Numbered from the stretch's first letter, positions 2,283-10,498 are shown. The stretch: 64,000 bases of DNA from Methanobacteriota archaeon (GCA_038104845.1 JAYOBJ010000003.1:15598-79597); one strand, 5' to 3'. A program made the numbers and translations. Notes: generated from the letters alone by a model not told the origin.

Positions 2283-2648
2283 ATGGCGGCTTCGTACGAC
2301 GCCCGCTGGGTCAGCGTGAGAGGTGCTGAACCGCGAAAGTGGTGGGTCCGCATCAAGGCCAAGGTCGACACGGGGGCCAAGCGATGTTCCATCGACGCTG
2401 GGCTGGCTGAAGCGCTGGGCTTGGAACAGGTCGGGAGCGTCAGCGTCCGCAACGCCATGGGCCAGCAGGAACGCCCCCTCGTCGCCGCTCGAGTGCGCAT
2501 CGGACGCACCACGCACGACATCGAGATGACCGTGGCCGACCGGAGCCAACTCAAATGCCCCATGCTGCTGGGCAAAATGTTCCTCGACCGGGTGGAACTT
2601 CAACAACCCAACCTGCCCAAGAGCAAGGATTTCCCTCAATTTGTTTAG
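2283..2648 (+). CDS. retropepsin-like aspartic protease domain protein (RimB / PF05618-like)
   Basis: 'IKAKVDTGAKRCSIDAGLAEAL' (DTGA active-site signature) and C-terminal 'DRSQLKCPMLLGKMFL'. The first ATG after the icd stop is at 2283; the ORF track starts at 2223, inside icd. Confidence 0.6.
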   Translation: MAASYDARWVSVRGAEPRKWWVRIKAKVDTGAKRCSIDAGLAEALGLEQVGSVSVRNAMGQQERPLVAARVRIGRTTHDIEMTVADRSQLKCPMLLGKMFLDRVELQQPNLPKSKDFPQFV

Positions 2649-5600
2649 AGGCGCAACCACGCTTTCAACGTGCGATGGTTCTTGGTCACACTGAAGCCAA
2701 AGCGCTCTTCGATCGCACGGTCAAGGAGGGTGAAATCACCGTCCATGGTGGCCACCAAAATGCTGCCAATGTTGGGCAAGGCTTGTTCCGAAAGATGGAT
2801 GGCCAAACGGTAGATGTCAAGATCGGTTTCTTCAGGGTAGATGGCCCGGTCATCGATGGTCGTTCGGTACGTGATGCCACGGGCGTTCTTGACCTCGGTG
2901 AGGTCCTCGAACACGTCCTCGTGACGCTTGAAGAAGGTGTGCAGTTCTTCGGAGGCGTCCCGCATGTCGGCGAGCATCTCCGGCGATGCCTCCCAAGTGG
3001 CGTATTCATTGAGAACTTGGTCGACCAACGACAACATCACGTCCTCGGACAAGGCGTGGTCGAGCGCTGCCTGGTCCACCATGGCCCCGTGGAAGCGGTA
3101 GCGCAAGCGTTGGTCTTTGGCGAATTGCTTCAGTTCGCCGCGCACATCGATGGGAATCATCAGGTGAAGTTGGTCGGCCTTGGCGTGGTGGAGCAAAATG
3201 CGATGGAACCGGTTCATGCTCATGATATCGGTGTTGGTGCCGGCCACCAACTTGAGTTGCTGGTGCACCTTGTCGACAAGGGCATCCACCAAGACATTGG
3301 TGTCCACGATGACCAACGGATACAGTGGCAAATTGCGCAGGAACCGCCGTTTCTTTGTGGGAATGTCGTCCTTGTGTTGAGCGAAGAGCGTTGATTCCAC
3401 GCCGGCCAATCGCCGACGATCGGGCAGGGTGAATTTCGTGGTGTTCTGCGCCCGCTCGAGGTACATCAAACCTTCAAACGGCGAGGTTTCAGCGGCGTTT
3501 TTGGCGATCTCGTAGATCTCCGACATCGATGGCGAGCTGCCGTGCATCGCTTGTCGGAAGTGCTGCTCGTGCTCCTTCCTGGATCGGCGCAAATCTCGAC
3601 TGATGCGCGTGGAAGCGGCCGTCACCCGGCCGAGGAACGGTTCGGGCGGAAGGAGGTGGGCTTTGTCGAACGGGTAGTTCTTCAGCAGGTCCAATTCTTC
3701 TTCGTTGTACACCGTGCGGTGTTTCACCACGACGTTGCCCTCGTCGTCTTCTTCCTCATACGGCACACGGGTTTGGAGATGGTTTCGAATCAACAACATG
3801 GCCTTGTCGGTGTCGGATCCAACCGTATGGCACACCTTCAGGTAGAGTTTGAAGCGTTCCGTGATCGCCGTCTTGAGCGCCGGCACCCGCTCCATGAGGT
3901 CCACCGCCTCCGACCAGTGTTGGGCATGGGCGAAGTGGATGAGGGATTTGCGGTACAGGGCCAACGGCAGGGCCAACGCTGAATCGTCGTCTTCGGTGTT
4001 GTCCTCGGACTCACCGAAGCCAGCCTTGCTGAAGGCTTCGGCGGCTCGCATGTATTCCCGTGCCGAGTTCAATTCGTCGCCGTTGGCGGCGAACAATGCC
4101 GCCCGAGCCAACGGTGCCCACGACGACAAGGGGGCGTGGTGCTGATACCATTCGACCAAATGCGGCAAACCCAAGTCGTGCTCCAGCACGAGGAACGAGA
4201 ACGAATCGATGAGGCGCATGGGAAGGGCCGGATGCTTCACGATGGCATCGATGACATCAACGGAGCCCCCTTTGGCCATCCCGATTTGATGTTCCTGGAT
4301 GAAGCCGTTCATTCGAAGCGTCAACACAATGACCTCAAACAAACGGCGTTCGATGACATCGAGGTCCAACTCGTCGAGTTGCTTCTCAAGGTTGCGCAGG
4401 TTGGTCGCGCTCACCACCCCGTCACCGGTGAGGGCCCTGCTGATGGGAGAAAACGCACGAAGGGCAGGTAAATTGAGCACTTCGGCAAGTTCCGGGGTTT
4501 CCTTGTAGATGCCTTCCATCAACAGCAGCAGGTGTTCAGACAGCGGCGAGAAGGCGTCGGGCAAGTCGGCCCCGTGTATGGCTTGGATGGCGTGGCGTCG
4601 AACGGTGTTGAGGGGCCTGGACCAGGCGGCGTGCATGGAAGCGGGTGCCAGATGGGCCACCAAAAGCGCAAAGTGAGGAGCCGCGTTGGCCAACTCCTCG
4701 CTGGCGGTGAAGAGGTGGGCCAGACGTTCCAAGTCGAGCGCACCGGTCAACAACGGCAAGGCCACGGTGGCGTCTGAAAGCGAGGCATCGTCACCCGTGT
4801 CCGCCAGACGTTGGGCTGCGGTCAGCCTCAGCGACGAACTGAGGCCTTCGTGCAGGAGGATCGACCGACAGGCGTCGGGTTCCAACGTGCTGAGGTGCTG
4901 GTGCAACCAAGCGTCGGCTCGCTCGTCGTTGAGGTCGACGATCACCGGCAACAAGGCCTCCACATCGGACCCGGCGTCGAGCGAAAGGGACAACAACACC
5001 TCAATCGCTTCGTCTTTCGCACCCTCCCGTCGGAACGCGTTCAACCGCCACCACACCAAACGGTCGTCTTGAAGCGTCACGTCCGCTGATGCCAAACGCT
5101 CGAGCCCTTGGGTCAGCCGTTCAGCCGACAGGTGCTCCGCTTCATCCGGAGCGTGTTGCCAAGCGAGCAGCAGACGAGCGGCGTTCAGACCGTCACCGTC
5201 GTCGAGGGCGAGCACACCGTCCCAGTCCACCACGTCTCCCATCGAGAGACGCTGGTGGTCCATCAGGTCGTCGTGCAACGTGGAATCGCTGGCTTGAGCT
5301 GCGTTCCAGACCGCATCGGGCACGGCATCTCCGCCGTGCAGGAGCAGGTAAAGCGGGACAAACGACAGGTCATCACCGAGGCCCAAGAGCGCCTCGTCCA
5401 CCACCACCTTCCGACCGGCGCTGACTTGGGAGGCCACGCGTTGCAACGCCACCTTGGCATCGGCGGAAGGCGCTGCGTCGACGGCTGCGTTCAGCAATCG
5501 GCCCAGGGCTTCCGCATCGGAGGGATCGAAGCGAAGCAGGGACGCATCGAGGGAGGCTGCAGCCGTTGCTTTGGCGCGCTTGGCTTTCGGGAAGGCAAGG

Positions 5601-6064
5601 AACTGCGCGAGCAACGGAGTCTTCTCACCGATGAGGTGCCACACAGGGTCCACGCCCTCCTCGAGGCACGAGGCGCGCAACGACTGCTCGGTGGCGTTCC
5701 ACGCCTCATCCCAGTTGTCGGCGTCGAGTTGCTTGTGCACCAGCAGGGCCGCCAGTTGGAAGGCCACGCTGTACGGGGCATCTTCGATGATCTCGGCGGG
5801 CGAGGGCAACCAACTCATGTGAGGCGGGCCGGCGTTCCGACCGCTTCGCCGGGTTCGACCTCGAGGACGGGCCATGGCCGGTCGAGCGGGGCTGTCGTCC
5901 TCCTCGGCCGCAGGCGGTTCTTCTTCACGGACGGCGATGATGACCATGGCACGGAGCGGCTTGTGCTTGCTCAACAAGTCCCACTCAGCTGTTTTGCTGA
6001 CCCGTGCCTGACGCACGTTGGGTGAAGCGGGGCGTTCAAACGCCGCGTTGAGGCACGATTCCAT
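2645..6064 (-). CDS. large helical-repeat protein with C-terminal PIN-domain nuclease
   Basis: The last ~230 aa carry PIN acidic motifs: 'LVIVDTNVLVD', 'DVRGELKQF', 'EETDLDIY', 'VATMDGDF'. The ~900-aa N-terminal part is Leu/Ala/Asp-rich and helical. The ORF is open to 6289, but that extension is Arg/Gly/Pro junk facing the divergent gene. ATG 6064 (MESCLN) is chosen. Later Met codons (MARPRG, MSWLPSP) are also possible. Confidence 0.7.
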   Translation of the reverse strand: MESCLNAAFERPASPNVRQARVSKTAEWDLLSKHKPLRAMVIIAVREEEPPAAEEDDSPARPAMARPRGRTRRSGRNAGPPHMSWLPSPAEIIEDAPYSVAFQLAALLVHKQLDADNWDEAWNATEQSLRASCLEEGVDPVWHLIGEKTPLLAQFLAFPKAKRAKATAAASLDASLLRFDPSDAEALGRLLNAAVDAAPSADAKVALQRVASQVSAGRKVVVDEALLGLGDDLSFVPLYLLLHGGDAVPDAVWNAAQASDSTLHDDLMDHQRLSMGDVVDWDGVLALDDGDGLNAARLLLAWQHAPDEAEHLSAERLTQGLERLASADVTLQDDRLVWWRLNAFRREGAKDEAIEVLLSLSLDAGSDVEALLPVIVDLNDERADAWLHQHLSTLEPDACRSILLHEGLSSSLRLTAAQRLADTGDDASLSDATVALPLLTGALDLERLAHLFTASEELANAAPHFALLVAHLAPASMHAAWSRPLNTVRRHAIQAIHGADLPDAFSPLSEHLLLLMEGIYKETPELAEVLNLPALRAFSPISRALTGDGVVSATNLRNLEKQLDELDLDVIERRLFEVIVLTLRMNGFIQEHQIGMAKGGSVDVIDAIVKHPALPMRLIDSFSFLVLEHDLGLPHLVEWYQHHAPLSSWAPLARAALFAANGDELNSAREYMRAAEAFSKAGFGESEDNTEDDDSALALPLALYRKSLIHFAHAQHWSEAVDLMERVPALKTAITERFKLYLKVCHTVGSDTDKAMLLIRNHLQTRVPYEEEDDEGNVVVKHRTVYNEEELDLLKNYPFDKAHLLPPEPFLGRVTAASTRISRDLRRSRKEHEQHFRQAMHGSSPSMSEIYEIAKNAAETSPFEGLMYLERAQNTTKFTLPDRRRLAGVESTLFAQHKDDIPTKKRRFLRNLPLYPLVIVDTNVLVDALVDKVHQQLKLVAGTNTDIMSMNRFHRILLHHAKADQLHLMIPIDVRGELKQFAKDQRLRYRFHGAMVDQAALDHALSEDVMLSLVDQVLNEYATWEASPEMLADMRDASEELHTFFKRHEDVFEDLTEVKNARGITYRTTIDDRAIYPEETDLDIYRLAIHLSEQALPNIGSILVATMDGDFTLLDRAIEERFGFSVTKNHRTLKAWLRL

Positions 6065-6204
6065 GTACGCTTCCACCGTGTCCACCCCCTGCGCATGCTG
6101 TGGCCCCCATCCTGTTGATTTCAACCCACCGATGCGAGGCGTTGGACGGTGAGTCCGACACATACTTCCTTGAACTCCGCCCCTCTTTGCCGACCGTTGG
6201 TCCC

Positions 6205-6678
6205 ATGGAACTCGTGCCCGCCATCGCTCTCCTCCTCCACCCCGTTCTGGCAACGGGGCTCGTGGTTTGGGTGTGGTGGCAGTACACATGGCGGCGAACC
6301 TCGAAGGAATTGAAGGGCGAGGAACGCCTTGCCCACCGGACCCGGCACGAAGTCAACGGCGAGCGGTTGCTGATCGCCACCGGTGCGGTCATCCTCATCG
6401 CCTTCGCCGGCCGCATGGTCAACGGCTGGTACACTGAAGGCAGCGTCTGGGCGGACATTTGGCCGCAATCGCTGCACGGCTACATGGGGCCGCTCGGGTT
6501 TGCCCTGTTGGTGGCGCTCTCGCGGTTTGGGCGCGAGGCAAAGACGCTGCGCGAGGAAGGCGAATCCTACACCTTAGCGAAGACCAAACACGGTCGAGCG
6601 GCTGACCTCGTCGTTTATCTGGTGTTCATTCACGCCTTCATGGGCTTCATCTACACCTTCGACCTGTTCCTGGCATGA
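6205..6678 (+). CDS. hypothetical integral membrane protein (about 4 TM)
   Basis: Hydrophobic helices 'LVPAIALLLHPVLATGLVVWVWW', 'LLIATGAVILIAFAG', 'GPLGFALLVAL' and 'LVVYLVFIHAFMGFIY'. ATG 6205 is preferred over the upstream start at 6100. Confidence 0.55.
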   Translation: MELVPAIALLLHPVLATGLVVWVWWQYTWRRTSKELKGEERLAHRTRHEVNGERLLIATGAVILIAFAGRMVNGWYTEGSVWADIWPQSLHGYMGPLGFALLVALSRFGREAKTLREEGESYTLAKTKHGRAADLVVYLVFIHAFMGFIYTFDLFLA

Positions 6679-9499: not shown

Positions 9500-10498
9500 T
9501 CAGCGCAGCAGCCGGTCACGGTCGTACCACATGCCCAACCAGTGTTTGAGGTTGTTCTCCAAACCCGGCGGTTGGACCCTGCACCCGCATGCGTTTCGAT
9601 GACCGCCTCCTGTGGGGTCCAACGACATGGCCATCCGAGACAGGTCGTAGGTGCCTTGGGCGCCGGGCAGGAAGGAATTGGCATAGAAACTGGCACCCAA
9701 CGGCGGCCGCTCGCGGTTGGAGGCGTCGCCGTCGGTGTACCCGTGCACCACGCAGCATGCGTCGGCTCGCTCGCCGGCCCAGGCCGTCACGATGTAGCCG
9801 TTGATGCGCAGATCGGTGTCCTCCAAACGGCACACAGCGAGGCGGTCGTGCAGCGTGGTGTGTGCGGCAACCGCCGCTTCGGCCACCCGCCGTTCATCCA
9901 CTTTGACGGCGACGAGGGACGCCACCTCAGGGTCGGCCATGACGGTCTCAAAATCAGCACCTTGGGAAAACATGCTCACGATGCGGTGCATGGTGGCTTC
10001 GTGACGCAAGGAACAACACCGGGAAAATTGGAGCGCAGGGCCGTCGGCGCGAAAATCATCCAGTGAAATGCCGCCGGAATCAAGCGCGTCGACCCACGGC
10101 ATGAGATCGGTGAGGTGGTCCACCGGTGTGACGTTCTGAAGCAGGTCGTGAACCACGCGAGCGGCGGAGGGAGCCGGGGCCCAATCCACCGCGCCACCGG
10201 CTTGGACAAACGCCGTTTCTTCCTCTTGAGTTGGACGGTTGGTGGCGTGGTGATCGATGTACCAACCGCATGCAGGGTCAAACGGCAGGTCCACCATGAC
10301 GGTGGAGGCGTTGATGTACGCCGATTCTAGGCCTCCGCGAACCGCAGCAGCGTGTGAAAATTTGACGGTGGCTTCGGGACGAAACGCCTTGAGCAGGGCG
10401 GCGCCCATCAACCCGTCGAGGTCGGCGTCGGCGAGGATCCGCGTGTACATGGGGACCTCATCGGCCTCAAGCGGTACCACGGCCATGAGGTGACCCAT
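9500..10498 (-). CDS. DHH/DHHA1-family phosphoesterase
   Basis: Motif I 'ADADLDGLMGAA', motif III 'YIDHHATN', and DHHA1 'GGGHRNACG'. Confidence 0.75.
   Translation of the reverse strand: MGHLMAVVPLEADEVPMYTRILADADLDGLMGAALLKAFRPEATVKFSHAAAVRGGLESAYINASTVMVDLPFDPACGWYIDHHATNRPTQEEETAFVQAGGAVDWAPAPSAARVVHDLLQNVTPVDHLTDLMPWVDALDSGGISLDDFRADGPALQFSRCCSLRHEATMHRIVSMFSQGADFETVMADPEVASLVAVKVDERRVAEAAVAAHTTLHDRLAVCRLEDTDLRINGYIVTAWAGERADACCVVHGYTDGDASNRERPPLGASFYANSFLPGAQGTYDLSRMAMSLDPTGGGHRNACGCRVQPPGLENNLKHWLGMWYDRDRLLR

Follow-up and report, generated by a model that had tools for sequence, protein, structure and literature searches.

PIN-like nucleases are built on a core of strands S1-S5 and helices H1-H5, with H4 crossing between the sheet halves (Matelska et al. 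2017, PMC5499597). Members of the VapC group carry an additional Glu in a helix inserted after S2, and in the uncharacterized bacterial PIN-like family DUF4935/PIN_12 (PF16289) S2 is followed by a long helical insert and the genes are monocistronic (PMC5499597). Here we describe a gene in a 64,000-nucleotide stretch of DNA from a Methanobacteriota archaeon (GCA_038104845.1, JAYOBJ010000003.1:15598-79597; the whole stretch is referred to below as the window), the product of which probably carries a PIN-like domain in its C-terminal ~230 residues, behind a body of ~900 residues without an assigned family. The gene is conserved across the archaeal order Poseidoniales, and we propose, with a probability of about 0.6 for the explanation as a whole, that it encodes a lineage-specific cytoplasmic nuclease of that order.

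The C-terminal domain resembles PIN proteins of the VapC group (PF01850; PIN_3, PF13470) in its strand-1 motif 'hhhhDTN', in the Glu of the helix following strand 2, in an acidic residue at the start of the crossover helix, and in the motif 'T.D.DF' after strand 4. It differs from them in its length (~230 rather than ~130 amino acids (aa)), its helical insert of 65-80 aa and its fusion behind ~900 residues, and also in having no antitoxin, in being encoded by a core rather than an accessory gene, and in scoring below the curated Pfam cut-offs. Neither the stand-alone ~130-aa PIN toxin nor the small antitoxin adjacent to it in an operon, by which type II VapBC systems are defined, is found at this locus. 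A preliminary description of the gene had argued that it is not a VapC toxin-antitoxin module and that no antitoxin-sized gene lies beside it; the first point holds for a monocistronic gene of 1139 aa without an antitoxin, and the second is right in substance, the neighbors being a divergent gene for a 157-aa four-helix membrane protein and a convergent gene. Among Pfam families, DUF4935/PIN_12 gives the most frequent and the best match in the family (7 of 22 C-domains, best expectation value (E) 9.6e-5), and it shares with the gene described here both the monocistronic organization and the long insert after S2. However, its proteins are bacterial, ~350 aa long and have the PIN domain at the N-terminus, whereas here the domain is C-terminal in an archaeal protein of 1140 aa. 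This likeness comes from Pfam matches of other family members and from the published description, the window's own sequence being below significance.

The C-terminal domain and its predicted active site

The four acidic motifs on which the PIN assignment was originally based, VDTN (residues 995-998), GELKQF (1051-1056), ETDLD (1154-1158) and DGDF (1183-1186), are all present, and their conservation is far above chance. (Residue numbers refer to a 1214-aa translation of the frame; numbering of the 1139-aa protein is obtained by subtracting 75.) Eleven positions are invariant in 87 aligned sequences, namely D996, T997, N998, R1142, P1152, E1153, D1156, A1180, D1183, D1185 and F1186. E1052 does not vary among 22 diverse C-domains, and its conservation across the 87 sequences is 90% or higher. 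Along the protein, conservation is highest in the strand-1 block and over the final 60 residues, with peaks at S1 and in the H4/S4 region.

An AlphaFold2 (AF2) model of the 240-residue C-domain has a mean predicted local distance difference test score (pLDDT) of 87.6 and a predicted template modeling score (pTM) of 0.87. Its elements, in domain numbering, are S1 (16-21), a helix (23-37), a disordered loop, a helix (54-63), S2 (68-70), a helix (73-84), six short helices (89-163), S3 (169-177), H4 (180-193), S4 (200-206), a helix (210-223), S5 (226-228) and a helix (231-235). Their order fits the S1-S5/H1-H5 core of PIN-like proteins, when read as order along the chain and not as order in the sheet. 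Placed on the secondary structure with the help of the model and the alignments, the acidic residues of the family sit at all four published PIN-like active-site positions.

Pfam searches with 22 C-domains from the family matched, besides PIN_12, PIN in five (best E 6.5e-4), PIN_3 in three, PIN_4 in three and NYN in one, and the families that matched more than one C-domain were exclusively of the PIN clan. For profile-profile comparisons with hhalign, PIN profiles were built from 30 PIN_3 and 29 PF01850 PIN proteins of Thermoplasmatota genomes, and not from Pfam seeds. The C-domain aligned with PIN_3 at a probability (Prob) of 92.5% (E 4.8e-7), from S1 through the Glu helix and with the Asp and the Glu aligned, and with the PF01850-type PIN profile at 59.9%. 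A second, colinear match to the PIN profile placed 'VLVATRDxDFtlv' on 'lvT.D.dF..v', and when the insert was spliced out the alignment covered positions 6-135 of the PIN profiles at a Prob of 88-94%. As a positive control, PIN_3 against PIN profiles gave 98.4%; scaffold windows, in 38 comparisons with these profiles, never exceeded 1.3%. A reading of 'DTN...DGD' as a HAD-type phosphatase, HAD being the other fold that has a 'D..../..D.D' pattern, was rejected, the HAD_2 profile reaching a Prob of 1.2%. The C-terminal PIN fold named in the preliminary description is thus supported by the hhalign results, the PIN-clan matches, the invariant acids and the AF2 topology, and the Glu position together with the profile matches indicates a member of the VapC group.

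The gene, its family and its neighborhood

The gene lies in one uninterrupted minus-strand frame, which from its first ATG spans 2645-6289 (1214 aa). Conservation in an alignment with 14 homologues starts at M76 ('MESCLNAAF', window position 6064), and the 75 codons upstream (6065-6289, minus strand) are unconserved across the homologues. The interval first reported, 2645-6064, matches exactly the 1139-aa frame from this conserved start, and the computed composition (Leu 14.1%, Ala 12.8%, Asp 8.1%) agrees with the accompanying remark that the protein is rich in Leu, Ala and Asp. The upstream extension is Arg/Gly/Pro-rich and overlaps ~85 bases of the opposite-strand gene for the four-helix membrane protein (from 6205); gene callers that choose the longest open reading frame will over-extend the gene at 6065-6289. 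A 99%-identical database entry begins at a GTG located 7 codons upstream of M76.

The full-length protein had no Pfam match at E <= 1, no NCBIfam match and no PADLOC match (the C-domain likewise had none in PADLOC), and nothing was found in the PDB by sequence search with the full protein or by search with the family profile, in line with the original observation that only the last ~230 residues are recognizable. A word-indexed search yielded over 260 relatives (1048-1172 aa), all of them unnamed or 'hypothetical', and the named sources were Poseidoniales metagenome bins. In an exhaustive HMMER scan of 1.84 billion representative proteins, only 151 clusters were matched, of which ~30 were full-length (1090-1170 aa, with identities as low as 25-30%) and the remainder fragments; short matches with seemingly only the last 60 residues look like truncated or chimeric gene predictions from very small contigs. 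Some family entries bear the JGI names 'negative regulator of replication initiation' or 'PAS domain-containing protein', which look spurious, the sole trace behind such names being one SeqA match (E 0.081) in one member. In the literature library searched, no paper joined Poseidoniales with a PIN domain.

The family profile (A3) was searched against 401 genomes of the phylum. It matched all 58 genomes of the window's family and 32 of the 37 from the sister family, but none of the 10 from the class's other order and none of the ~296 in the rest of the phylum. In the 90 positive genomes the matches are single-copy and without internal stops, and they nearly always cover the whole profile. The gene is an order-level innovation of the Poseidoniales and is near-universal there. 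A search with the C-domain profile returned only fragments of this family and no relatives that stand alone or have another fusion partner; the interval between E 4.6e-21 and 0.01 was empty. Sequence identity is ~70% within a family and ~30-45% between the families, a divergence that follows taxonomy. A fusion artefact of two genes, which the preliminary description had itself named as a way in which its reading could fail, is ruled out by the single uninterrupted frame over the whole profile in the 90 genomes, and is also contradicted by the representative clusters, which are either full-length or fragments. The architecture, ~900 unassigned and probably helical residues followed by a C-terminal PIN domain, is constant across the family, and the overall observation with which the work began is confirmed.

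Pfam searches with 31 members gave only sub-threshold TPR, Clathrin, ARM and PPR matches in the N-terminal body, scattered and in single members, and no internal repeats were found in it above an hhalign Prob of 5%. Averaged over the alignment, a Chou-Fasman prediction gave 65% helix and 12% strand, with a three-state accuracy (Q3) of just 0.61 where an AF2 model allowed calibration. Directly before the PIN-like domain lies a helical bundle (Table 1), and residues 868-903 are rich in invariant positions (LPxEPFxGRVTAA...RRxR) and were disordered when modeled in isolation. The earlier term 'helical scaffold' for the N-terminal ~900 residues is plausible; the bundle has been modeled, whereas for the rest the helix content comes from the crude Chou-Fasman estimate, which is a weak test. 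Near the N-terminus, an acidic, Pro-rich linker precedes a conserved Arg-rich patch that may bind nucleic acid.

Examination of the gene neighborhood revealed a conserved order of cobalamin adenosyltransferase, NUDIX, a ~330-aa protein without assignment, (MMPL), a divergent ~157-aa membrane protein, the PIN-like gene, a variable slot, icd and OsmC, with FtsZ and RadA at a greater distance. This synteny is kept in distant members and in both Poseidoniales families. The PIN-like gene is monocistronic: its upstream neighbor is transcribed divergently from it and its downstream neighbor convergently. We found at the locus no antitoxin-sized partner, NTPase, sensor domain or island signature, and no patchy or mobile distribution. 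In the window, a retropepsin-like gene occupies the variable slot, which is empty at two other Poseidoniaceae loci and in Thalassarchaeaceae contains either NMO and DUF4442 or a TPMT-like methyltransferase. The stop of the retropepsin-like gene overlaps the convergent stop of the PIN-like gene by 4 nucleotides.

The four-helix membrane protein has conserved His motifs (LHG, KHGRAAD and FIHAF) and no Pfam match, and could be a heme- or metal-binding membrane protein. It adjoins the PIN-like gene in both Poseidoniales families, with 35-41% identity across families, and is absent from three sampled genomes of the neighboring order. A functional pairing of the two genes is not supported, the gene for the membrane protein surviving in four of the five sister-family genomes without the PIN-like gene; because it is retained where the latter is absent, the membrane protein is probably not its partner. 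Another order-wide orphan is the 332-aa protein encoded further along, which both families keep within the syntenic block and which is 39% identical to its Thalassarchaeaceae counterpart.

Table 1. Coordinates of the PIN-like gene, its predicted domains and residues, and neighboring genes (positions counted from the first nucleotide of the window)
Feature	Position	Strand	Remarks
Whole gene	2645..6064	minus	1139 aa + stop from conserved start M76; frame open further upstream to 6289
Predicted PIN-like nuclease domain	2648..3337	minus	Residues ~985-1214; AF2 model m71dee30acb54, hhalign, PIN-clan Pfam matches in members
D996 (VDTN)	3302..3304	minus	Invariant Asp, end of strand 1
E1052 (GELKQF)	3134..3136	minus	Glu in helix after strand 2, VapC-group position; aligned by hhalign with PIN/PIN_3 Glu
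E1153 + D1156 (PEETD)	2822..2833	minus	Invariant acids, N-terminus of crossover helix H4
D1183 + D1185 (ATMDGDF)	2735..2743	minus	Invariant Asp pair directly after strand 4; compare VapC 'T.D.DF'
Helical insert, ~65-80 aa, after strand 2	2873..3112	minus	Residues ~1060-1139; conserved W1099, F1119, K1134
Helical bundle, four long helices and one short	3347..3598	minus	Residues 898-981; AF2 model m5ef20b5b61d0, block pLDDT 82-95
N-terminal body (~820 aa)	3599..6064	minus	No family match; crude prediction ~65% helix
Arg-rich patch RPRGRTRRSGR	5837..5869	minus	R143, R147, R148, R151 nearly invariant
Retropepsin-like aspartyl protease	2223-2648	plus	PF05618, PF13975, PF13650; between icd and the PIN-like gene
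157-aa four-helix His-rich membrane protein	6205..6678	plus	Divergent from the PIN-like gene
332-aa orphan protein	9500-10498	minus	No Pfam match

Proposed function and rival explanations

In the function that we propose, D996, E1052, E1153/D1156 and D1183/D1185 would coordinate Mg2+ or Mn2+ for the cleavage of a phosphodiester bond. The helical insert after S2, at the site where FEN nucleases have their helical arch and DUF4935/PIN_12 its long insert, would probably shape or gate the substrate cleft, and the ~900-residue body with its Arg-rich patch would select or position a substrate or a partner. PINs of the VapC group most commonly act on RNA. The gene is monocistronic, occurs once per genome in nearly all of the order and lies within conserved core synteny, which would make a constitutive role in the metabolism of nucleic acids most likely; within such a role RNA processing or turnover would be likeliest, ahead of a toxin or defense function. 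We infer catalysis, metal dependence, RNA as the substrate and the scaffold role, and likewise an RNA-processing function.

That the product would be a constitutive, lineage-specific nuclease is also suggested because synteny is that of the core genome, divergence is vertical and the sampled order is without canonical VapC-type PINs. No canonical PIN_3 (E <= 1e-5) or PF01850 PIN (E <= 1e-8) gene was found in the sampled Poseidoniales genomes; in the phylum, 53 of 151 sampled genomes have PIN_3 and 63 of 101 have PIN, often in many copies. The Poseidoniales thus appear nearly free of VapC-type toxin-antitoxin modules, and the gene described here most likely behaves as a housekeeping gene and not as a toxin or defense gene.

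Two more specific roles were considered and rejected. Nob1 (PIN_6 plus a zinc ribbon), the archaeal endonuclease of the 16S rRNA 3' end, is likewise a housekeeping archaeal PIN nuclease with an insertion in the PIN fold. However, the protein described here has no zinc ribbon, and a separate PIN_6/Nob1 gene is found elsewhere in the window's genome (G000:C28) and in all 18 sampled Poseidoniales, so that a Nob1 replacement is excluded. A stand-in for a missing exosome is excluded as well, RNase_PH genes being present at 3 per genome. Matches to the RNase_PH domain number three in each of 10 sampled Poseidoniales and two (Rrp41 and Rrp42) in most other Thermoplasmatota; two of those in the window's genome lie at G000:C5:10417-11570. 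As a separate observation on gene content, HAD_2 (PF13419, E <= 1e-10) is absent from four sampled Poseidoniales genomes and present in all 37 other sampled Thermoplasmatota.

Several results weigh against the proposed nuclease. The window's own protein stays below the curated Pfam cut-offs, its C-terminus matching PIN_3 at E 0.093 with 14 bits (cut-off 27) and PIN_4 at E 0.12 with 13.2 bits (cut-off 21.9). The second half of the domain taken alone aligns weakly (Prob 7-17%), and around the third acidic site the hhalign alignment is 1-6 residues out of register. Foldseek searches with both AF2 models against PDB and BFVD gave no significant match (best E 0.26, 0.32 and 0.096; template modeling (TM) scores <= 0.3), and the weak matches that fall within the PIN superfamily are FEN1 (PDB rank 3, E 0.88) and viral models only. 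The match to the active site would be one of acid placement along the predicted chain, and not of clustering in three dimensions or of strand order. Finally, the five negative genomes of the sister family belong to two genera of Thalassarchaeaceae and are 89-98% complete. They stay negative with the C-domain profile at E <= 1, and the syntenic site lacks the gene in both of the gene-negative genomes inspected (two of the five); the gene is therefore dispensable in these two genera.

The 65-80-residue insert may break local structural alignment. Because Foldseek gave no significant match, fold membership rests on profile-profile and topology evidence and not on structural superposition. The preliminary description had stated that structure searches without a PIN match would speak against it, and this came about in part, Foldseek having given no significant match. 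Taking these points together with the evidence for the domain, we still regard a PIN-like fold of the C-terminal ~230 residues as probable.

The Foldseek results bear most directly on the possibility that the protein is a structure-specific DNA nuclease, similar to FEN or 5'-3' exonucleases and active in replication or repair, in which the insert would be the arch and the scaffold would bind DNA or repair partners. FEN1, T5 exonuclease and XRN are PIN-like superfamily members in which a helical element is inserted after S2, and the insert occupies the position of the FEN arch (PMC5499597). FEN1 and viral 5'-3' exonuclease, flap endonuclease or XRN models are the sole entries of the superfamily among the weak structural matches (eight phage or viral models of these kinds in the BFVD top 50, best E 0.096), and the insert contains the conserved K1134, with the invariant R1142 just after it and before strand 3. 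However, none of these matches is significant, and the PIN core lacks a following H3TH domain. The second acid, a Glu in the post-S2 helix, has the VapC-group position, the FEN group having an Asp within S2 instead, and profile similarity is to PIN_3, PIN and PIN_12 and not to FEN families. We therefore consider a DNA nuclease of this type unlikely.

The C-domain may also not be a catalytic PIN at all, being instead another Rossmann-like alpha/beta domain or a binding-only PIN-like fold, in which case the protein would be a structural or regulatory scaffold. A confident model without a significant PDB or BFVD match, a protein that reaches no curated family threshold, and strong hhalign support limited to the first half of the domain would fit such a protein. 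On the other hand, all PIN acidic positions are invariant in ~90 sequences down to 25-30% identity, which is typical of a maintained active site, both halves match the PIN profile colinearly, the HAD control is negative, and every Pfam family matching more than one member is of the PIN clan, making a non-catalytic domain improbable.

It is conceivable that the protein is a convergent archaeal counterpart of scaffold-tethered PIN endonucleases such as SMG6, with the body as a platform that would recruit RNAs or ribonucleoproteins to a gated PIN site, but we think this equally improbable. The overall plan of SMG6/SMG5 (EST1 family), a long helical N-terminal region that recruits partners and a C-terminal PIN endonuclease, is shared, as the preliminary description had pointed out in likening the gene to eukaryotic scaffold-tethered PIN RNases. 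This likeness stands for the architecture but not for homology of the scaffold, for which we found no sequence or profile similarity and no EST1-family Pfam match in 31 members at E <= 1, and it most probably reflects convergence of architecture.

A defense or toxin nuclease, of the abortive-infection type or as a self-contained toxin in which the scaffold would sense infection and unleash the PIN domain, is very improbable: PIN domains are common effectors in toxin-antitoxin and defense systems, large single proteins combining sensor and effector exist, and PIN_12/DUF4935, the nearest family in Pfam, is likewise monocistronic (PMC5499597), but the gene is single-copy at one syntenic core position beside housekeeping genes throughout two families, its divergence tracks taxonomy, the locus has neither the partners nor the mobility of such systems, and neither the full protein nor the C-domain shows a PADLOC-DB 2.0 model match or a variable-island context. 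Of the original interpretation, then, the PIN-like C-domain, the constant architecture and the distinction from VapC modules stand, whereas the option of a defense nuclease, raised for a gene now seen to be near-universal in one order, has no support, and its other option, RNA surveillance, is conjectural.

Significance for the Poseidoniales

The Poseidoniales (Marine Group II) rank with the most abundant archaea of the surface ocean and are uncultured; what distinguishes them can be read chiefly from the conserved genes that are specific to the order. The gene described here represents a new order-restricted family and a new architecture inside a known superfamily, a long-insert PIN domain behind an orphan body of ~900 residues, and is an advance in annotation and not a new mechanism. 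It also corrects the reflex by which a PIN domain is read as a toxin or a defense protein. If the SMG6-like reading were true, the gene would point to a lineage-specific pathway of RNA quality control or processing in the ocean's most abundant planktonic Euryarchaeota, without an equivalent in other archaea. A probable nuclease active site gives a large, near-universal and unannotated gene a testable biochemical function, and with it a first lead on the role of a conserved orphan gene in this abundant uncultured archaeal lineage.

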